Assembly: GCA_964586975.1 (NCBI GenBank)
Contig: CAZPJV010000002.1
Coordinates: 1-45,218 of the forward strand
Source of the DNA: an uncultured Candidatus Saccharibacteria bacterium
GTDB taxonomy: Bacteria > Patescibacteriota > Minisyncoccia > Phycocordibacterales > UBA9973
Reading direction: 5' to 3'
DNA: 45,218 nt
In this document: one piece after another, positions 2,949-32,749 of the stretch
How the letters are laid out: each line of letters opens with the position of its first letter
Position numbering within the stretch: position 1 is the first letter of the stretch
Notes under the pieces: model-generated
Databases searched by the model: none
What the model was told of the DNA's origin: nothing
Seen by the model: the letters and a program-made list of their open reading frames with translations, nothing else
Program-made: the position numbers and the translations under genes

Positions 2949-3572
2949 TTATAGCATATTCAAGAATCCAACTACTTCTGCGTCCGAGACCTGCGGAAAA
3001 TTGTGATAATAGGCCCCGACCGCGCCGAGATAACTGCGCTCGTCTTGCAACACCACGGCCGCGTCCGCCTCGGCGTGCAGAATCCGCATAAATTCGTGCG
3101 GCGCCACCGGCACCGCCACGACCAGCTCTTGCGGTTTTTCTTTGCGCAGAGAACGAAGCGCCGCCAGCATAGTCAACCCGGTGGCGACTCCATCGTCCAC
3201 CACAATCGCGATTTTATTTTGGGCCGAACGATATTGCCGGCCCGGCAAATATGTCTCCCGGCGCCGCCGCGCTTCGGCCAATTCTTTCCGCGCCTCGGCT
3301 TTCAGCCATTTAGGGTCCAGCAATTCTTTTTCTTTTTCGCTGCAGAAAAGCTCTCCTTTTTCGGTAATGGCGGCAACCGCGTATTCCGGATTTTCCGGAT
3401 GCCCGATTTTTCTGGCAATCACCAGCTCCAGCGGCACGCGTAAAAATTTCGCTATCTCATAGCCCAAAACCACCCCGCCCCGCGGCAGAGCATACACCAC
3501 AGCGTCTTGGCCCGCGTATTGTGAGAGCTCTTCAGCCAGCAACCGCCCGGCTTCTTTTCGGTCTTGAAACAT
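2949..3572 (-). CDS. Phosphoribosyltransferase family protein (COG1926-like)
   Basis: PRPP-binding motif IAIVVDDGVATGLTM. The N-terminus MFQDRKEAGRLLAEEL is typical of this family. The ORF-track start at 3635 adds 21 residues that would abut the tRNA fragment, so I prefer ATG 3572. Confidence 0.8.
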   Translation of the reverse strand: MFQDRKEAGRLLAEELSQYAGQDAVVYALPRGGVVLGYEIAKFLRVPLELVIARKIGHPENPEYAVAAITEKGELFCSEKEKELLDPKWLKAEARKELAEARRRRETYLPGRQYRSAQNKIAIVVDDGVATGLTMLAALRSLRKEKPQELVVAVPVAPHEFMRILHAEADAAVVLQDERSYLGAVGAYYHNFPQVSDAEVVGFLNML

Positions 3573-3637
3573 ATTTAAAGTATACTCCTCTTTTTGCGAT
3601 TTTTTGGAAAATAAGATAAAATGGCGAAGCATCATTT

Positions 3638-6653: not shown

Positions 6654-6703
6654 GCGCGTAGCTCAGCTTGCCCCGCCTGAACTAGGCGGGGTGAAGTAGA
6701 GCG
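6654..6703 (+). other. tRNA D-arm-like fragment A with hairpin inserted in the D-loop
   Basis: GCGCGTAGCTCAGCTTG[CCCCGCCTGAACTAGGCGGGG]TGAAGTAGAGCG. The flanks resemble tRNA positions about 1-25 and no anticodon arm follows. Confidence 0.7.
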
Positions 6704-6734: not shown

Positions 6735-6808
6735 GGGCGGTTAGCTCATTTGGCTAGAGCGCGTCGTTGACGTCGACGAGGTAACAAGTTCGAGTCTTGT
6801 ACCGCCCA
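6735..6808 (+). tRNA. tRNA-Val (anticodon GAC), no encoded CCA
   Basis: Acceptor GGGCGGT/ACCGCCC, anticodon stem CGTCG/CGACG with loop TTGACGT, T arm ACAAG-TTCGAGT-CTTGT, discriminator A. Confidence 0.9.
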
Positions 6809-6809
6809 C

Positions 6810-7079
6810 ATGAGTTGTTATGTATATTTGATTCAAAGCAGTTTAGATAAGAGTTTCTATGTTGGCATATCTGAAGATCCATTTAAACGTCTTCATGAGC
6901 ATAATAGCGGTAAATTAAAAAGTACTTCAAGAAAGAAACCATATGCCATGATTTATACAAAAGAATATCCAGATTATAAATCTGCAAGGAAACACGAAAT
7001 TTGGTTGAAAAAGAAAAATTTAAATTATAAATTAAGGTTAGCTCAGCTTGCCCCGCCTAGTTCAGGTGGGGTAAACTAG
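6810..7079 (+). CDS. GIY-YIG nuclease family protein (89 aa, domain only)
   Basis: CYVYLIQS...FYVGISEDPFKRLHEHN pattern. The ATG begins 2 nt after the tRNA-Val discriminator base. The C-terminal 14 codons read through tRNA-like fragment B. Confidence 0.85.
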   Translation: MSCYVYLIQSSLDKSFYVGISEDPFKRLHEHNSGKLKSTSRKKPYAMIYTKEYPDYKSARKHEIWLKKKNLNYKLRLAQLAPPSSGGVN

Positions 7080-7100
7080 AGCGACCTCTTGACGTGTGTC
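7035..7100 (+). other. Degenerate tRNA-Val-like 5' fragment B with hairpin in the D-loop
   Basis: GGTTAGCTCAGCTTG[CCCCGCCTAGTTCAGGTGGGG]TAAACTAGAGCGACCTCTTGACGTG. The D-arm flanks match fragment A and tRNA-Val. TTGAC recalls the Val anticodon loop, but no stem or 3' half follows. Confidence 0.65.
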
Positions 7101-21942: not shown

Positions 21943-23789
21943 CGATTCTGGGAACGCATCATTTTGAGAAATACGTCTTGGGGAATATTTATTTTGCCCT
22001 TGGCTTTCATGCGAGCCTTGCCCCTCTTCTGCTTTTCCAAAAGTTTTTTCTTGCGGCTGACATCGCCGCCGCCGACTACTTTGGAACCATGCATCAGCAC
22101 ATCTTTGCGGAAGGCGGCAACAGTTTCCGAGGCGATTATCCGGCCCAAGGCTTTGCCCTGAACTTTGAAGGCGAATTGTTGTCTCGGAATCACTTTTTGC
22201 AGCCGTTCCACCTGGGCTCGGGCTTCTTCTTCCACTCTGCGCCGCGAAATTATCCGGCAGAATGCCGGCATGGGTTCGTCTGCTACCAGAATGTCCAGCC
22301 GCGCCACATCCGCTTCTTTATACTCAGCCAGTTCGTACGCAATGGAAGCATAACCGGAAGTTATGCTTTTTAAGTCATCAAAAAAATTGCGCATCAGCTC
22401 CCGGAGCGGCATTTCCAGGCTGATGGACGAGCGGTTATCGCCGAAGTTCTCGGCGGTGTGAACTATCGCCTCGTGGTCAAACAGAAAAGGCATCAGCAGG
22501 CTGGCGTAGGTTTGCGGAGTAATTATTTTTACTTTGACCCACGGCTCGTAGACCCTGCCAATCTGTCCGTCTTCGGGGAAAAAGTGCGGGGAATAAATTA
22601 TTTCCTCCTTCCCGTTTTTTAATATCACTTTATAATTTATGGAAGGTGTAGTTATCACCAAACGCATATTAAATTCTCTCTTCAGGCGCTCGGTAATTAT
22701 TTCCAGATGGAGCATTCCTAAAAATCCGCAACGAAAACCTTTGCCTAAGGCTCCGGAAGATTCTTCTTCATAAGAAAACGCCGAGTCCGACAGCCGCAGT
22801 TTGCCCAAAGCCAATTTGAGAGACGGAAAATCGTCGGCGTCTTCGGGATATACGGACGCCCAGACTACGGGCTTGGGATTCAGGTAGCCGGGCAGAGCGG
22901 GAGCAGGTTTTTTATTTAAAGTTATGGTATCGCCCACCGAAGCGATACCGGGCTTCCTGATGCCGGTAACGATATAGCCTATCTCGCCGGCGGTTATGGA
23001 ATTTTTGGGAGATTCAACCGGCGCAAACACACCCACTTCCAGGGCAATGAATTTTTCTCCCGAAACGGCGAAGACCAGCGCGTCGCCCTTTTTTATTTCC
23101 CCGCCGAAGACCCGCACATAGACAATCACTCCGCGATGATTGTCATATTTGAAATCAAAAACGAGCGCTTGTACCCCTTCCTGTCCTCCCCCTACGTAGG
23201 GGGAGGTGCCCTGAGTTTGTCGAAGGGCGGAGGGGGTAGGCGGCGGCACTTTTTCAATAATTTTCCCGAGCAGATTTTCCACACCTTCGCCTGTCTTGCC
23301 GGAAACTTCCAGAACCGCGTCCGGGTCTAGGTTGAGAAGCACCGCCGCTTCCATTTTAACTTCCTCAATTCTTGCGAGCGGCGAATCAATTTTAGACACC
23401 ACCGGTATTATTTTCAGTCCATTGTCCTGCGCCATTTGGAGCGTAGTCAGTGTCTGCGCCTGCACGCCTTGAGTAGAATCCACCAGTAGAATGGAACCCT
23501 CCACCGCCTTGAGCGCGCGGGAAACCTCGTAAGAGAAATCTATGTGGCCGGGAGTGTCTATCAGGTTAAGCACGTATGCTTCACCGCCTATTTCATACTC
23601 CATGCGAACGGGTTGCATTTTTATGGTAATGCCCCGCTCCCGTTCCAGCTCCATGGAGTCCAGCACCTGCTCGCGCATTTTGCGGGCTTCAATGGTATGC
23701 GTAATTTCCAGCAGGCGGTCCGCTAGGGTGGATTTCCCGTGGTCAATATGCGCGATGATACTAAAGTTGCGTATGTTTTCTAATTTCAT
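21939..23789 (-). CDS. lepA: Elongation factor 4 (LepA), with an in-frame insertion of about 20 aa
   Basis: G motifs AHIDHGKST, DTPGH and SKID, plus the LepA C-terminal domain. It has extra residues SALRQTQGTSPYVGGGQEG between PPP and the LQAL(V/I)FD segment. Confidence 0.92.
   Translation of the reverse strand: MKLENIRNFSIIAHIDHGKSTLADRLLEITHTIEARKMREQVLDSMELERERGITIKMQPVRMEYEIGGEAYVLNLIDTPGHIDFSYEVSRALKAVEGSILLVDSTQGVQAQTLTTLQMAQDNGLKIIPVVSKIDSPLARIEEVKMEAAVLLNLDPDAVLEVSGKTGEGVENLLGKIIEKVPPPTPSALRQTQGTSPYVGGGQEGVQALVFDFKYDNHRGVIVYVRVFGGEIKKGDALVFAVSGEKFIALEVGVFAPVESPKNSITAGEIGYIVTGIRKPGIASVGDTITLNKKPAPALPGYLNPKPVVWASVYPEDADDFPSLKLALGKLRLSDSAFSYEEESSGALGKGFRCGFLGMLHLEIITERLKREFNMRLVITTPSINYKVILKNGKEEIIYSPHFFPEDGQIGRVYEPWVKVKIITPQTYASLLMPFLFDHEAIVHTAENFGDNRSSISLEMPLRELMRNFFDDLKSITSGYASIAYELAEYKEADVARLDILVADEPMPAFCRIISRRRVEEEARAQVERLQKVIPRQQFAFKVQGKALGRIIASETVAAFRKDVLMHGSKVVGGGDVSRKKKLLEKQKRGKARMKAKGKINIPQDVFLKMMRSQNR
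23173..23240. repeat. TIR-family palindromic element, in frame in lepA
   Basis: The left arm ACCCCTTCCTGTCCTCCCC closely matches the leuS copy (ACCCCTCCCTGTCCCTCCCC at 29817). The right arm is GGAGGGGGTAGG. The core contains the perfect 22-nt palindrome CCTCCCCCTACGTAGGGGGAGG (23185-23206). Confidence 0.7.
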
Positions 23790-23795
23790 AAATTT

Positions 23796-23846
23796 ACCTC
23801 ACCCCTTCGCCCCTCTCCTTAATAAGGAGAGGGGTTGGGGAGAGGT
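23796..23846. repeat. TIR-family palindromic element, intergenic single-hairpin copy
   Basis: ACCTCACCCCTTCG-CCCCTCTCCTT-AAT-AAGGAGAGGGG-TTGGGGAGAGGT. It fills the gap between the ABC gene stop and the lepA start. Confidence 0.8.
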
Positions 23847-25602
23847 CATTCCAAAAAGCCGCCGGTCTGGTGCTCCCAGAGCTCGGCATAAAAACCACTT
23901 TTTGCCAAAAGTTCCTTGTGGGTTCCCTCTTCCACTATCTTGCCCTGGTCCAGCACGATAATCCGGTCCATTTTTTGAATGGTGGATAGGCGGTGCGCGA
24001 TGACGATAGTAGTTTTGCCCTTCATTAGTTCGTTAAAGGCATCTTGGATATAATGTTCGCTAATGCTATCCAGGGAGCTGGTGGCTTCGTCCAACACCAG
24101 AATCGGCGCGTTCTTCAGCATCGCCCGGGCGATAGCCACCCTCTGTCTTTCCCCGCCGGATAGTTTTATGCCCCGCTCCCCGACCAGCGTATCGTAACCC
24201 TTCGGCAATTTTCTGATAAACTCATCGGCGTGGGCTTTTTGCGCGGCGGCAATTATCTCCGTTTCGGTGGCGTTATTTTTCGCGTAGCCGATATTTTCCT
24301 TAATGGACCGATGAAATAAAATAGATTCCTGCGGCACGTAAGAAATCTTTAACCGCAGTTCGTCTTGTTTCAGTTTAGTAATATCCTGGTCATCAATCAA
24401 AATTTTGCCCTCTTTTATGTCCGAAAAACGCAGGAGCAGTCTGGTAATCGTAGATTTGCCGGAGCCGGATGCCCGACCAATCCAACTTTTTCTCCGGATT
24501 TGATTTCAAGATTAAAATTTTTAAAAACCTTCAGCCCCTCCACATACTCAAAAGAAACACTGCTGAAGTTTATTCTGCCGGCTGAAATCCGGCATGGTTC
24601 TGGATTTGAAACATCCAAAATCTCCGGTTTTAAATCCAGCATATCGGTAATTTCTTTCATATCCGAAAACGCCTCCGCCATTCGGCTTAAAGAGCGGCCT
24701 AGGTTCCACAAAATATCAAAGAGGCCCATCATATATGTTTGGATTAAAACAAAAGTGCCCACCGACATTTTGCCCGCAGACCAAAAATAAATATTCACGA
24801 AAAGAACCACAATCTGTAAAACCGCCATCAGCAACGCTTGAAAAACATTTTGCAGATTGCCGAAATACCAGGCTCGGCGGCGCTTGGTTTCTTCATCTGC
24901 CGTAACAAGTCTGAACTTCTCTTGTTCTTTCCGCCGACCGGAGAAAATTTTTATATTCAAAATATTAGTCAGCGTATCGGCTAATTTGCCGGTCACTACA
25001 GAGTCGGCTGCCGCTTTGCGAGTATCAAAAACTACCTTTCTCCTGGTGAAAAGAATGGTTATGAGAACATAGACCACGGACCAAGCCAAAAAGATAAACC
25101 CCAGGGGTGGAATTTTTATGAACAGGACAAATAAAATGCCGGCAATATTCACCAAGGAAAACCAGATTTGGAAGCTAAGAGTATCTTGGAAAATCTCAAA
25201 TGACCGGGTGAAGCGTTTGGTTTTGGCGACAATACTGCCGGAAAAATTATTGGAGAAAAAAGAATAGGAATGCATTAGGAGTTTATCAAAGGTGTAATCA
25301 TACAAACCCTTCATGGTTCGGCTTTCAAAATAGGCATTGGCATAATCACCGACGCGGTAAAAAACCTGATGCGTTAAAATAATTAGCGCGGACCAAAGCG
25401 CCAAATTAATAATGCGGGTCAAAATTAAGTTAACCTCGGCGCCGCTGGCGATAGAATCAATGATTTCTTTATAGATATAGGGTTTAAGAATATTGTCCAG
25501 TAAAGTGGCCACGCCATAGGCAAAAAACACGAGAAAAAAAGAAAGCCAATACTTCCTCATTTGCGGCCAAACGTGTCTAAAAATTTTGCGAAACGAAATC
25601 AT
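23846..25602 (-). pseudogene. ABC exporter (fused TMD-NBD, MsbA/ABCB-like) split by a -1 frameshift at the Walker A motif
   Basis: The ORF 24415..25602 is a 6-TM ABC membrane domain ending GEKVGLVG and then going out of frame. Shifting one base at the C-run 24472-24474 restores [40 protein letters not shown], continuous with ORF 23846..24400, which carries the LSGGERQR signature, Walker [10 protein letters not shown] and the H-loop AHRL. Confidence 0.85.
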
Positions 25603-29350: not shown

Positions 29351-32300
29351 TTATAAAACTATATTGATAAGCCTGCCCGGCACATAAATAACTTTCTTGA
29401 TATTTTTGCCGGCGATATGCTTGATGGCTGTTTCGTTGGCCAGAGCTTGTATTTTAACCTTTTCTGCCGGGGCTTCCGCGCTTATCACAATTTCCGCCCG
29501 AACTTTGCCGTTAACCTGCACCGCGATTTTTATTTCCTCATCTTTTATTAAATTTCTGTCCCATTTGGGCCATATTGAAAGACTGATAGATTTTTTCTCG
29601 CCGAGCCCTTGCCAAAGTTCTTCGGCGATGTGGGGAGCAAAGGGCGAAAGAATTTGCAAGAACATTTTAAAATCTTTAATTGAAATCCACTGCGCCCGTT
29701 CCATCTCCGTTGCTAAAATCATCATGGCTGAAATTGCGGTATTGAAACGCATATTTTCTATATCTTCCGTAACTTTTTTAATGGTTTTGTGAAGAATTTT
29801 TTTTAAGGTCAAATCCACCCCTCCCTGTCCCTCCCCAAAGGAGAGGGTTATTCCCCCTCTTTTGGAGGGGGTTAGGGGGAGGTGAAGAATTTTCTGCCCT
29901 ATTTTCCACACTCGTTCCAAAAACCTTCGCGGGCCGACTATCGCCTCTTCGCTCCAGGCAATCGCCTGGTCAAAAGGGCCCATGAACATTTCATAAAGCC
30001 GCAGGGTGTCGGCGCCGTATCTTTTCACGATATCGTCGGGATTAATCACATTGCCGCGTGACTTGGACATTTTTTCACCGCCTTCAGCCAAAATCAGCCC
30101 GTGCGAGGTGCGCTTTTTATATGGCTCACTCGTGGGCACCAATTTCAAATCATACAAAAACTTGTGCCAAAAGCGCGAATAAAGCAGGTGGAGCGTAGTG
30201 TGTTCGTTGCCGCCGTTGTACCAGTCAACCCCTCCCTGGCCCTCCCCCAAGGAGAGGGAATTTTTGTTCCCCTTCCTTGGGAAGGGGTTAGGGGTAGGTC
30301 CAAGCCAGTATTTCAAATTTTTCTTTGAGGCAAACTCTTTACTATTTTGGGGGTTAGCATATCGTAAATAATACCAAGAACTCCCCGCCCAGTTAGGCAT
30401 GGTATCCGTTTCGCGTCTGGCAGGACCTTTGCATTTCGGACATTTGGTATTTACCCATTTGGAAATATTTGCCAAAGGTGACTCGCCTGTTTCTGTCGGC
30501 TGATAATTTTTAATTTTCGGCAAAAGAACCGGCAAATCTTTTTCCGGTACCGGCACCCAAGTATTTGAGCAAGGACTACCCTTGCTCACGCAGAAAACTA
30601 CCGGTATCGGCTCCCCCCAATATCTCTGCCGGGAAAAGACCCAGTCCCGCAGTTTGAAAGTTGTCTTTTCCCTGCCGCCGACAAATCTTACGATTTCCCT
30701 TTTCACTTTTTCAGAATCCATGCCGTCGAATTTGCCGGAATTGGCGAGAATTCCTTCGCCGGTATAAACCTGTTCCTGCCCCTGCAAAATATGCCAGTCG
30801 CGCAGAGAACCTTCAATGTTCATAATTCTTTCTAACTCCGGTTTGGTAACCCAGATTAATTCATGTTTTTCTTTTTCGTCCGGAGTAAGTTCTTTCTGTT
30901 CCCCATTTTTTAATTCAAAATAAAAATTGGAGAAATGCGCGAAACGATTTTCTTTCTTGGGCACGTGGTAAAACTTGCTGTGTGAGCGCGGCAGTTCTTT
31001 CAGTAACTTAAAATTCTGATAGCCGGTTTCTTCCCTGATTTCGCGTTCAACTGCTTGGAGCGGTGTTTCTCCTTCATCTACACCACCCGTTATAAATGTT
31101 ACCCAATCAACTTTTTTCCATTTCAAAACCAAATATTTGTCCTCCGAACAATGCTTTAATATCGCATGTACTGCTTCCCGTTCCACGAACGGCAAATCTT
31201 CTCTAGGATTATCAAAAAAGGTCGGCTCAATTACATTTTTAATCGGCAAACTGTATTTTTTCGCAAATTCAAAATCGCGTTCGTCATGCGCCGGCACAGC
31301 CATAATCGCGCTGGTGCCATAGTCATAAGACACATAGTTCACAACCCATACAGGAATCTCTTCGCCATTCGCAGGATTGATGGCTCGGAGGCCAGTATCT
31401 TTTCCTATTTTTTCCCCGCCTGCCATCGCCTGCGGCTTCAGGCCGTGGCGGGCAGGCTTATTTTCCTCTGATTTTACACCAAAGTCACTGCCCGCTAGTT
31501 TCTTCGCGACCTCCGGAGCAATCGCCAAATAAGTCGCTCCGAAAATCGTGTCCGGGCGAGTGGTGAAAACTTTAATGCCCAATTCAACCTCTCCCTGGCC
31601 CTCTCCCAAGGAGAGGGGGTAATCCGGAAGAGTTTCCAATTTTTTATTTATCCTCCTTATTACATCTGCTAAGTTTTCTAAAACTTCCTCATTTGAAAAT
31701 CGGAGAATGGTATAACCAAGTGTTTCCAGCCGATTGATCCTTTCGGCATCTCTTTCTCTCTGATAATTATGAACACCCCCCTCAATTTCTATAACCAAGT
31801 TTTTCGGAAGACAAAGAAAGTCCACAATAAAATGATCAATTATATGCTGTCTTCTGAAATGATATCTCTGTTTGTTCGCTTTTAGCGCTTCCCATAATTT
31901 CCTTTCAGCTTGAGTGGGGTTCTTTCTCATTTCTAATGCTTTCTCAAAAAGTTCCTTATATACTTCAGCATCAGTGGTGACATAACCCGGCAATGCCCCC
32001 CTTCCTTGGGAAGGGGCTGGGGGTAGGTCTGGGGTTAGGTTCTTTATTTTAAATTCTATCTCTGCCCCCTCGGACTTCCCTATCCAATTTCTTTGCGCAA
32101 GTTTTATGTGCGGCAAGTAGTCCACGGTATCTAAATCTTTATCTAACCTTTCCGCATATTTAGTAATCCCCAGCATCCACTGCTCTTTTTCTTTTTTTTC
32201 CACCGGCGTGCCGCAACGTTCGCAAGCGCCACCCACAACCTCTTCATTGGCCAAACCGATTTTACAGGACGGGCACCAATTAATCGGAATTTTTGCTTTG

Positions 32301-32749
32301 TAAGCCAAACCTTTTTTCAAAAATTGCAAAAATATCCACTGCGTCCACTTGTAGTATTTCGGATCAGTGGTATTTATTTCCCGCGACCAGTCAAAAGAAA
32401 TTCCCAGGGATTTTATCTGCTGGCGGAAAGTATCGCTATTTTTTTTAGTAACCACCCGAGGGTCTTGACCGGTCTTGATGGCGTAGTTTTCCGTCGGCAA
32501 ACCAAACGCGTCCCAACCGATGGGGTAAAGCACATTAAAACCTTCCATCCTTTTTTTTCTGGAAATCACATCCATCCCGATATACGGCCGCGGATGTCCC
32601 ACATGCAACCCGTCGCCGGAAGGATAAGGAAACTCAATCAAGCTGTAATATTTAGGTTGTTTTGATAGATCTTTGGCTTGAAAAACCTTCTTTTCCTCCC
32701 AAATTTTCTGCCACTTTCGTTCCAACCCCAAATGCTCATATTCTTTCAT
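29351..32749 (-). CDS. leuS: Leucine--tRNA ligase carrying five in-frame insertions (three TIR elements, one with a DUF559 domain; one hairpin element; one Nudix domain)
   Basis: HIGH (GDGLHVGHP), KMSKS (KMSKSRGN), CP1 editing motifs (TTRPDTIFGATY, GTSAIMAVPAHDERDFEFA), RDWVFSRQRYWGEPIP, and GGNEHTTLHLLYSRFW. At 1132 aa it is much longer than the roughly 860 aa of E. coli LeuRS. Confidence 0.95.
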   Translation of the reverse strand: MKEYEHLGLERKWQKIWEEKKVFQAKDLSKQPKYYSLIEFPYPSGDGLHVGHPRPYIGMDVISRKKRMEGFNVLYPIGWDAFGLPTENYAIKTGQDPRVVTKKNSDTFRQQIKSLGISFDWSREINTTDPKYYKWTQWIFLQFLKKGLAYKAKIPINWCPSCKIGLANEEVVGGACERCGTPVEKKEKEQWMLGITKYAERLDKDLDTVDYLPHIKLAQRNWIGKSEGAEIEFKIKNLTPDLPPAPSQGRGALPGYVTTDAEVYKELFEKALEMRKNPTQAERKLWEALKANKQRYHFRRQHIIDHFIVDFLCLPKNLVIEIEGGVHNYQRERDAERINRLETLGYTILRFSNEEVLENLADVIRRINKKLETLPDYPLSLGEGQGEVELGIKVFTTRPDTIFGATYLAIAPEVAKKLAGSDFGVKSEENKPARHGLKPQAMAGGEKIGKDTGLRAINPANGEEIPVWVVNYVSYDYGTSAIMAVPAHDERDFEFAKKYSLPIKNVIEPTFFDNPREDLPFVEREAVHAILKHCSEDKYLVLKWKKVDWVTFITGGVDEGETPLQAVEREIREETGYQNFKLLKELPRSHSKFYHVPKKENRFAHFSNFYFELKNGEQKELTPDEKEKHELIWVTKPELERIMNIEGSLRDWHILQGQEQVYTGEGILANSGKFDGMDSEKVKREIVRFVGGREKTTFKLRDWVFSRQRYWGEPIPVVFCVSKGSPCSNTWVPVPEKDLPVLLPKIKNYQPTETGESPLANISKWVNTKCPKCKGPARRETDTMPNWAGSSWYYLRYANPQNSKEFASKKNLKYWLGPTPNPFPRKGNKNSLSLGEGQGGVDWYNGGNEHTTLHLLYSRFWHKFLYDLKLVPTSEPYKKRTSHGLILAEGGEKMSKSRGNVINPDDIVKRYGADTLRLYEMFMGPFDQAIAWSEEAIVGPRRFLERVWKIGQKILHLPLTPSKRGGITLSFGEGQGGVDLTLKKILHKTIKKVTEDIENMRFNTAISAMMILATEMERAQWISIKDFKMFLQILSPFAPHIAEELWQGLGEKKSISLSIWPKWDRNLIKDEEIKIAVQVNGKVRAEIVISAEAPAEKVKIQALANETAIKHIAGKNIKKVIYVPGRLINIVL
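29816..29884. repeat. TIR-family palindromic element (cargo-less, 69 bp), in frame in leuS
   Basis: CACCCCTCCCTGTCCCTCCCCAAAGGAGAGGG-TTATT-CCCCCTCTTTTGGAGGGGGTTAGGGGGAGGTG. It encodes LTPSKRGGITLSFGEGQGGV. Confidence 0.85.
30227..30299. repeat. TIR-family palindromic element (cargo-less), in frame in leuS
   Basis: AACCCCTCCCTGGCCCTCCCCCAAGGAGAGGG-AATTTTTGTT-CCCCTTCCTTGGGAAGGGGTTAGGGGTAGGT. It encodes PTPNPFPRKGNKNSLSLGEGQGG immediately before VDWYNGGNEH. Confidence 0.85.
30800..31190 (-). other. Nudix hydrolase domain embedded in LeuRS
   Basis: GGVDEGETPLQAVEREIREETGY (31019-31087) fits the Nudix box GX5EX7REUXEEXGU at every position. Flanking beta-strand-like segments (AVHAILKH..YLVLKW; FYFEL; LIWVT) complete a domain of about 130 aa that E. 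coli LeuRS lacks at this point. Confidence 0.85.
31414..31457. repeat. CTGCCCGCC hairpin element, in frame in leuS CP1
   Basis: On the minus strand it reads GCCTGCCCGCC-ACGGCCTGAAGCCGCAGGCGAT-GGCAGGCGGGG and encodes KPARHGLKPQAMAGGEK. The murJ copy encodes a similar MPARQLAGGDGEK. Confidence 0.6.
31586..32040. mobile_element. TIR-bounded element carrying a DUF559 (Vsr-like) endonuclease domain, in frame in leuS
   Basis: The arm 31586-31620 and the reverse complement of 31996-32028 match at 25 of 33 positions. The interior encodes PTQAERKLWEALK...FRRQHIIDHFIVDFLCLPKNLVIEIEGGVH...RDAERINRLETLGYTILRFSNEEV, which is the DUF559 hallmark pattern. Boundaries are approximate. Confidence 0.8.

Follow-up and report, generated by a model that had tools for sequence, protein, structure and literature searches.

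Inteins with a homing endonuclease are in-frame selfish nucleases in essential genes; they are expressed by their host and are patchily distributed among orthologues. Palindromic repeats can occupy a similar position: Ogata et al. are said to have described, in 2000, Rickettsia palindromic elements (RPE) that lie in frame in essential protein genes, those for translation included, are translated, and are tolerated as surface peptides. We know of no enzyme cargo and no autonomous partner for the RPEs. Here we analyze a 45,218-nt stretch of DNA from an uncultured Candidatus Saccharibacteria bacterium (contig CAZPJV010000002.1 of assembly GCA_964586975.1; this whole stretch is referred to as the window), in which leuS, the gene encoding leucyl-tRNA synthetase (LeuRS), contains a DUF559 nuclease domain in frame between two inverted palindromic arms. 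We interpret this insert as a copy of a REPtron-like family of selfish elements whose Vsr-like nuclease is translated within the host protein, and give this interpretation a probability of about 0.68. The leuS-type element has the above features in common with inteins; however, it is located in variable loops and not in catalytic motifs, and it is bounded by inverted repeats in the DNA. As in RPEs, short palindromic repeats are found in frame in essential genes, whereas the leuS-type elements carry whole folded domains and belong to another sequence family and other taxa.

In REPtrons (REPIN-RAYT systems, built from repetitive extragenic palindromic (REP) sequences) and in TIRtrons, a small enzyme gene is likewise located between two inverted palindromic units (PMC3733652, PMC3116915). 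Their repeats also exist in many copies that lack the gene and are often paired as inverted doublets; target-site duplications are absent, and some of the REPs are located within genes (PMC3733652). The leuS-type element differs in three respects: its enzyme is a Vsr-like PD-(D/E)xK nuclease and not an HUH/Y1 transposase, its ends are ACC...GGT arms composed of a C-box and a G-box and not GTAG- or CGTC-tagged REPs, and its enzyme gene is in frame and translated as part of the host protein.

Vsr-like (EDxHD) homing endonucleases occur in introns and in "fractured gene" settings (PMC2677866). I-Bth0305I (PDB 3R3P) and the fractured-gene endonucleases share the nuclease fold with the leuS insert, and they too are selfish genes in conserved housekeeping genes. 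These endonucleases are encoded by free-standing open reading frames (ORFs) in group I introns or between the halves of split inteins, possess extra DNA-binding domains and no inverted terminal repeats, and splicing restores the host protein; in contrast, the leuS-type element has neither intron nor intein, and the nuclease remains in the host polypeptide. The stand-alone DUF559 proteins, represented by NGO0050 (3HRL), have all family motifs in common with the domain in the window except for one D-to-E replacement; they are annotated merely as "endonuclease-like", and we found no link to repeats in the papers searched. The open-access papers and preprints that we searched contained no account of DUF559 as repeat-associated or in-frame mobile DNA. 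An automatic JGI annotation labels one such protein "leucyl-tRNA synthetase/very-short-patch-repair endonuclease"; since this label exists, the fusion has been met by pipelines but apparently not interpreted. The leuS-type in-frame nuclease element is apparently an undescribed kind of mobile DNA.

The DUF559-bearing insertion in leuS

In the ORF list, leuS occupies positions 29351-32749 of the minus strand. The gene is intact, encodes 1132 aa, and retains the HIGH and KMSKS motifs; as reported in the initial annotation of the window, the frame is continuous through the insert. Pfam recovered the class I core (tRNA-synt_1), the LeuRS editing domain, and Anticodon_1, together with two foreign domains, DUF559 (aa 268-371) and NUDIX (aa 547-639). 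In total, leuS carries three palindromic-element insertions in addition to the NUDIX domain. The nearest relatives of the window LeuRS (the 120 best matches) are LeuRS sequences from Paceibacterota/Nomurabacteria.

The whole DUF559 element (31587-32040, minus strand, 454 nt) extends in frame from ACC to GGT, and its ends are accurate to a few nucleotides. It is flanked by ...GAEIEFKIKN and ELGIKVFTTRPDT and lies just upstream of FTTRPDT, where the editing domain starts. The 5' arm in the coding sense (31996-32028, minus strand) consists of the C-box ACCTACCCCCAG and the hairpin CCCCTTCC-CAAG-GGAAGGGG, and encodes ..LPPAPSQGRGA..; the 3' arm (31587-31619, minus strand) consists of the hairpin CCCTCTCC-TTGG-GAGAGGG and the G-box CCAGGGAGAGGT, and encodes ..PLSLGEGQGEV. 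These terminal inverted repeats at both ends of the element are 33 nt each and are complementary at 25 of 33 positions (76%), exactly as first described. An extra tandem terminal 12-mer is present outside the 5' arm (32029-32040, minus strand; ACCTAACCCCAG in coding orientation). With this 12-mer, which amends the initial description of the ends, the element covers 31587-32040. Between the arms lies the cargo, a 122-aa DUF559/Vsr-like PD-(D/E)xK nuclease domain (31628-31993, minus strand; Pfam part 31637-31948). The GC content of the cargo is about 0.35-0.41, compared to about 0.47-0.54 in the flanking leuS sequence.

The hairpin pattern of the arms had three plus-strand matches in the window against 0.01 expected by chance; a fourth match, on the minus strand, is the reverse reading of the palindromic site at 31599-31617. 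A profile calculated from 52 arms of other genomes recovered all six leuS arms with E-values from 3e-7 (the 3' arm of the DUF559 element) to 4e-4 (its 5' arm). Because this profile was built solely from the arms of other genomes, the test is not circular and the recurrence of the arms beyond chance, which had been claimed from the window sequence, is real. No target-site duplication was detected at any junction inspected in the window and the related loci, and the window does not contain a second DUF559 copy. Rfam at gathering thresholds detected no structured RNA or riboswitch at the element; its only matches were six tRNAs elsewhere in the window. An intein was considered and rejected: no Hint-family Pfam match was found at E<=0.01, and the junctions (N|L and V|E, in ..KIKN|LTPD.. 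and ..GEV|ELG..) have no splice residues.

The cargo had a strong match to the DUF559 profile, as had been anticipated (PF04480; 105.9 bits, cutoff 20.6, E 1.3e-30, covering positions 4-108 of the 109 in the profile). Its Pfam matches were DUF559 and the related MTES_1575; an HUH/Y1 (IS200-like) transposase was not among them. The closest solved relative is 3HRL (E 2e-19), the Neisseria "endonuclease-like protein" NGO0050. AlphaFold2 (AF2) folded the 122-residue cargo alone with confidence (pLDDT 89.6, pTM 0.83). Foldseek matched this model to 3HRL (1.6e-6), to the catalytic domain of I-Bth0305I (3R3P, 2e-4), and to 1VSR (0.03); the template modeling scores were 0.67-0.86 against 3HRL and 0.65-0.79 against 3R3P. 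The predicted fold is Vsr-like alpha/beta.

Conserved residues were compared across the best 80 of 474 relatives that were retrieved from one-genome-per-species contigs with a profile of LeuRS-borne DUF559 domains (10-sequence alignment). T27, E30, W34, R47, Q49, D58, E69, G72, H75, R85, and N101 are invariant in all 80 loci, and D71 and D82 are Asp in 79 of them. In the window, the position of the ExDG Asp (D71) is occupied by Glu323 (codon GAG, 31781-31783, minus strand), so that EIEGGVHN is found in place of the usual E[IV]DGDIHD. Glu is confined to the window clade (P0001-P0003), whereas all 26 LeuRS-borne copies outside this clade have Asp; one of the two nearest relatives of the window cargo (P0002 and P0003) also has an internal deletion. 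The earlier statement that the acidic residues are present therefore applies to D58 and E69, which are kept together with H75, and not to the ExDG Asp. The initial annotation had also taken an internal Met (MRKNPTQAE) as the usual start of free-standing DUF559 proteins, from which separate expression was thought conceivable. This Met (in ..EMRKNPT..) is a conserved core residue, and the nearest free-standing homologues begin 20-30 aa upstream, first helix included; the proposed start did not hold up, and separate expression from it is without support.

The ratio of nonsynonymous to synonymous divergence (dN/dS) of the cargo was 0.12 between the window and the nearest DUF559-bearing orthologue (locus L001), and by this measure the domain is still under purifying selection. 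In an exhaustive search, 20,591 clusters at 50% identity matched the DUF559 domain; among the best 148 of these, 56 have a length of 300 aa or more. The top-scoring representative (P0241, 377 aa) contains three DUF559 stretches, so that a single ORF encodes nuclease domains in tandem.

The insertion in LeuRS orthologues and in other genes

We compared the insertion site in the 120 closest LeuRS orthologues and calculated their phylogeny from 719 core columns. The loop before FTTRPDT is empty in about 70 of the 120 sequences, and 29 contain DUF559 with arm peptides on both sides. Several others have a short peptide of the palindromic type at the site; in P0077 the DNA reveals a 44-nt single-hairpin element exactly there. 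Composite arrays in the order arm, alpha/beta hydrolase or PF10706 nucleotidyltransferase, arm, DUF559, arm occur in further orthologues; NUDIX, Ham1-like, or hydrolase domains are found at the same site in some, and in five orthologues small elements are nested within the DUF559 ORF. The DUF559-bearing sequences are scattered over the LeuRS tree, often beside empty sisters.

The divergence of the cargo follows that of the host poorly. The LeuRS-borne DUF559 domains form at least 11 clusters, and their identities correlate poorly with those of the host proteins (r 0.24). One cluster (cluster 6) spans distant hosts, with higher identity between the DUF559 domains than between the hosts. The window cargo is 47-50% identical to other LeuRS-borne cargos, while the corresponding hosts are 78-82% identical. 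The proportions of synonymous differences between the window and L001 were 0.73 for the host gene (saturated), 0.50 for the cargo, and 0.27-0.30 for the arms, with the qualification that the lower value for the cargo could partly stem from AT-rich codon usage; in other pairs, the synonymous divergence of cargo and host was discordant in both directions. The insertion is not uniformly conserved, in agreement with the mobile element that had been proposed: it is present patchily at one homologous site (29 of 120) in at least 11 DUF559 lineages, empty and solo-palindrome alleles exist, and its phylogeny is discordant with that of the host, as is expected for a homing endonuclease gene. A conserved recognition sequence across the insertion point was not detected in the empty alleles, in which the loop varies in length and sequence.

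Other sequences also occupy the LeuRS loops. The loops aligned to aa 215-402 and 950-982 of the window protein contain unrelated in-frame repeat peptides in some orthologues (e.g., ..SPDAFAQSLGPSLRSATPSQKHAGS.., ..PDVGRQ/GVGHP.., and ..NFSALRPS..), which suggests several further in-frame repeat families in Paceibacterota. In the closest empty allele (locus L087, the leuS of P0017), the DNA of the linker is a short CCAATT(T) repeat in tandem (CCAATTTCCAATTCCCAATTTCCAATT, encoding PISNSQFPI). Alpha/beta hydrolase, PF10706, and Ham1-like domains are found in the LeuRS loop of P0005, P0007, P0014, P0036, P0057, P0062, P0082, and P0107; these extra folded domains are often stacked with DUF559, with extra arms between them. 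In locus L086 (1501-5559), arms are located at + 53, + 652, - 707, - 1142, and - 1166 (coordinates in the excerpted site region), and the loop of orthologues of this type looks like an in-frame cassette array. The NUDIX domain of the window LeuRS (30833-31111, minus strand, aa 547-639) is inserted in the editing domain; its region is low in GC and has no flanking arms. Nearly all of the 120 orthologues have a NUDIX domain; in P0073, P0089, P0090, P0098, P0104, and P0109 it is located instead at the DUF559 site before FTTRPDT.

The unit is found in many host genes. In about 74 of the 80 loci, the DUF559 domain lies within a long open frame. LeuRS is the host in 49 of the 80, in candidate phyla radiation (CPR) bacteria and many Bacteroidota, always at the same site and always with arm-type peptides; this share is inflated because the search profile was derived from LeuRS-borne copies. 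Among the LeuRS carriers are cultured Leeuwenhoekiella (such as L. aequorea LMG 22550, locus L067) and an assembly of Dokdonia. The unit is present in at least 12 further genes; according to Pfam its in-frame hosts include acetyl-CoA synthetase (Acs), Tgt, RecJ, an IcmF-like mutase, MetH, RsmA, GpmI, RecG, a CoA-transferase, and a PP2C sensor, and the domains of these hosts are often split in two by the insert. A few DUF559 copies are free-standing, and these have arms too. The phenomenon is not peculiar to leuS of the window; in CPR bacteria and Bacteroidota, DUF559 elements are widespread, both in LeuRS and in other genes.

Inverted arms of one design surround DUF559 in about 60 of the 80 loci at a score of at least 12, and in 44 at a score of at least 14. 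The design is (A)CCYNYCCC-NNN-CCCYYYCC-loop-GGRRRGGG: a terminal C-box that starts with ACC is followed, after a spacer of 3 nt, by an 8-bp hairpin, the 5' half of which is a repeat of the C-box. Within an element the two arms can be nearly identical (up to 30/31 and 33/35), and the arms differ between elements. Examples that combine near-perfect arms with intact nuclease motifs are L029, L051, and L077. In the hairpin, 98.3% of the cells are paired and both sides have changed in six of the eight pairs; 63 cells with double changes were counted in arms that had been pre-filtered for a 6-bp stem, compared to 17.5 in shuffled data, and none of 500 shuffles reached this number. These covariation counts indicate that the hairpin is kept by compensatory changes.

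In the DUF559 phylogeny, the copies group by host gene at a fine scale, and the LeuRS-borne copies are interleaved with those from Tgt, RsmA, CoA-transferase, and mutase genes. The sister domains in LeuRS of L036 and Tgt of L017 have 3' arms that are identical at 31 of 32 positions; the arms and the nuclease therefore move together between genes. Counting the 80 loci and the window, 109 of 156 arm matches flank DUF559, and many of the others are inverted doublets inside the same host gene. A search for a phage vector returned just three weak relatives (32-34% identity) among viral contigs. One Flavobacteriales metagenome-assembled genome contains three copies (L077, L078, and L079): one in LeuRS, one in the IcmF-like mutase, and one that is free-standing; a cargo-less doublet is also present in the gene of the mutase. 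Locus L018 is labeled Candidatus Saccharibacteria; however, its LeuRS flanks and DUF559 cluster with those of the Bacteroidota loci L007 and L010, and the contig is probably mis-binned.

Cargo-less palindromes and other repeats

Two cargo-less double-hairpin elements are located in leuS on the minus strand, and each comprises a whole number of codons. Element 2 (30228-30299; 72 nt, 24 codons, encoding ..PTPNPFPRKGNKNSLSLGEGQGG..) lies between LKYWLG and VDWYNGG; this site is empty in 66 of the 120 orthologues, and about 20 have the same kind of element. Element 3 (29816-29884; 69 nt, 23 codons, encoding ..LPLTPSKRGGITLSFGEGQGGV..) lies in a variable linker before the anticodon-binding domain. 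The arms of element 2 are collinear with those of the DUF559 element, which are unlike each other: compared on the same side, they match at 29/33 and 29/33 positions, and crosswise at 23/33 and 21/33. No residual cargo sequence was found in the spacers of the cargo-less elements; therefore, a deletion derivative and an empty target are indistinguishable in these copies.

Besides these two, which are confirmed, the initial annotation had listed two further cargo-less copies outside leuS. The first (23796-23846, no strand assigned) is a related, intergenic single-hairpin element between the stop of ORF 23846-24400 and the start of lepA (arm profile E 0.017; folding z of the DNA -5.2). The second (23173-23240, minus strand) is an in-frame palindromic insert of 23 aa in lepA (PTPSALRQTQGTSPYVGGGQEGV, folding z -3.7); its design is similar, but its match to the arm profile is not significant (E 6.6), and as a possible distant relative its membership in the arm family is uncertain.

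We also sampled 120 metagenomic stretches that were seeded solely by the arm pattern and contain 184 arms. Thirteen of these arms flank DUF559, 32 occur in doublets, and the rest are solos or undetermined; cargo-less arms exceed the DUF559-flanking arms by about 10:1 in this arm-seeded sample. In the same loci, 38% of the arms lie within long open frames as opposed to 61% of random positions; thus, the arms are depleted in genes, as insertions would be, and in-frame survivors are still common. The cargo-less copies share their ends with the cargo-bearing ones and outnumber them, the pattern known from elements with terminal inverted repeats and their miniature derivatives (MITEs). The pairing of a nuclease-bearing element with MITE-like forms that was suggested in the initial annotation finds support in this ratio, in the collinearity of element 2 (29/33 and 29/33), and in the 109 of 156 arm matches that flank DUF559.

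Two other repeats are present in the window. The two copies of a 45-nt repeat (6659-6703 and 7039-7083, 82% identity) lie on either side of the tRNA gene at 6735-6808; a GC hairpin is present in both, with a loop that is inverted between the copies (CCCCGCCTGAACTAGGCGGGG versus CCCCGCCTAGTTCAGGTGGGG). A 60-nt direct repeat (1267-1326 and 2881-2940, 95% identity) is located close to the 5' ends of two neighboring minus-strand ORFs (140-1342 and, judged by position, about 2949-3635 or 1332-2843); it may reflect recent gene conversion between paralogues.

Proposed mechanism, alternatives, and implications

In a REPtron-like element of this kind, the unit would insert, or survive, solely where it is readable, that is, in frame, in sense orientation, and in a surface loop of the host protein. 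The arms would be translated as Pro/Gly-rich linkers (..PSPALPEGEG.. / ..LPFGEGLGGV..), and the nuclease would be produced, without any splicing, as a domain inside the host enzyme. It may recognize the palindromic arms of its element, binding to duplex DNA as a symmetric dimer or acting on extruded hairpins, and cut at these arms; repair or re-insertion would then copy the unit into new sites or into resident cargo-less palindromes. We infer that DUF559 is the mobilizing enzyme of the element. The cargo-less double- and single-hairpin forms would be non-autonomous relatives that need the nuclease in trans, as REPINs need RAYT; they could be deletion derivatives or targets for a homing nuclease gene. 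The leuS copy in the window is probably old and vertically inherited in a small clade, and is possibly crippled or immobilized. It may no longer be autonomous, because its arms have diverged (76%) and the near-invariant catalytic Asp is replaced by Glu. The internal deletion in a sister sequence and the history shared with P0002 and P0003 also fit an old member of the family, one that is still kept foldable (dN/dS 0.12).

Several observations weigh against this interpretation, beginning with that Glu. The link between DUF559 and the arms is one of association and conservation, and a PD-(D/E)xK nuclease alone cannot transfer strands; copying must therefore use host repair. No conserved target motif was found at the junctions, the immediate flanks differ among loci, and a target-site duplication is absent. 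Unrelated in-frame repeat families fill the same LeuRS loops without DUF559; the recurrent use of the LeuRS site may therefore mean tolerance more than targeting. The folding z of both leuS cargo-less elements is unremarkable (-1.6), a value that is uninformative because any mixture of C-box and G-box folds well. The AT-rich codon usage of the cargo and the stem filter applied to the arms, mentioned above, belong here as well.

The alternative that fares best, which we consider unlikely, is that REP-like palindromes are moved by another enzyme or by host processes, with DUF559 as a passenger or as a homing-type gene that targets resident palindromes. To our knowledge, PD-(D/E)xK nucleases are not known as sole transposases. 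Cargo-less arms are far more common than DUF559-flanking ones, 62% of the metagenomic arms lie outside long open frames, the same LeuRS loops also harbor several in-frame repeat families that lack a nuclease, and CGTC-type REPs were reported without a dedicated transposase (PMC3733652); all of this fits such a scenario. It fits less well with the tight linkage of DUF559 and arms in the 80 loci, with the travel of both arms with DUF559 between host genes, and with the catalytic residues kept in the in-frame copies, which a mere passenger would not need. In the version with homing into palindromes, the nuclease still acts on the arms, and this version overlaps with the REPtron-like interpretation.

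It is distinctly improbable that the insert is an intein-less in-frame homing endonuclease gene for one LeuRS site, which cuts empty leuS alleles and spreads by gene conversion, with the arms as incidental linkers. In its favor, 49 of the 80 loci use the same site, which is shared by CPR bacteria, Bacteroidota, and many DUF559 lineages; homing endonucleases of the Vsr-like type exist (PMC2677866), and the cargo has its nearest fold match in 3HRL, followed by the homing endonuclease I-Bth0305I. The flanking conserved motifs GAEIEF and FTTRPDT could supply homology; however, the immediate flanking DNA is unconserved and the loop varies in length. Furthermore, the LeuRS-derived profile inflates the share of LeuRS among the loci, at least 12 other genes contain the unit, which is also found free-standing, and the arms are conserved as inverted DNA, are present in non-coding DNA, and move with the nuclease.

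An old domain fusion that serves LeuRS as an exapted nucleic-acid-binding or nuclease module, vertically inherited, repeatedly lost, and immobile, would be in keeping with the purifying selection on the domain (dN/dS 0.12), its retention at one site in many lineages, the diverged arms and replaced catalytic Asp of the window clade (as expected after domestication or immobilization), and the tolerance of LeuRS in this clade for other inserted domains (NUDIX, hydrolase, Ham1), but we regard it as very improbable given the unrelated DUF559 lineages at the same site in close hosts (cargo identity of 47-50% versus 78-82% for the hosts), the discordant synonymous divergence of cargo and host, the compensatory changes in the inverted arms, and the same unit in unrelated genes. 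Immobilization of the window copy alone is also compatible with a REPtron-like selfish element.

A wider claim, which we put forward tentatively and consider doubtful, is that these elements represent an unrecognized class of bacterial mobile element, in which DUF559 is the sole enzyme, has the C-box/G-box arms of its own element as substrate, and is produced exclusively within essential host proteins, with the arms serving as in-frame junctions at which further domains are stacked. If this were true, it would provide the first function for the large DUF559 family, and the arm junctions that stack hydrolase, PF10706, Ham1-like, and NUDIX domains would constitute a natural domain-insertion system.

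The REPtron-like interpretation would add a third way for a selfish nuclease to reside in an essential gene, beside introns and inteins: it is read through as a surface domain. The link between DUF559 and the palindromes gives an orphan family a testable function, namely cutting the cognate arms, and a compact nuclease (about 120 aa) that co-varies with its arms, and whose 8-bp half-site looks programmable, could be a useful tool. The findings bear on the origin of protein domain insertions and on the annotation of "fused" enzymes in CPR bacteria and Bacteroidota, and they may explain the long, odd housekeeping proteins in CPR genomes.

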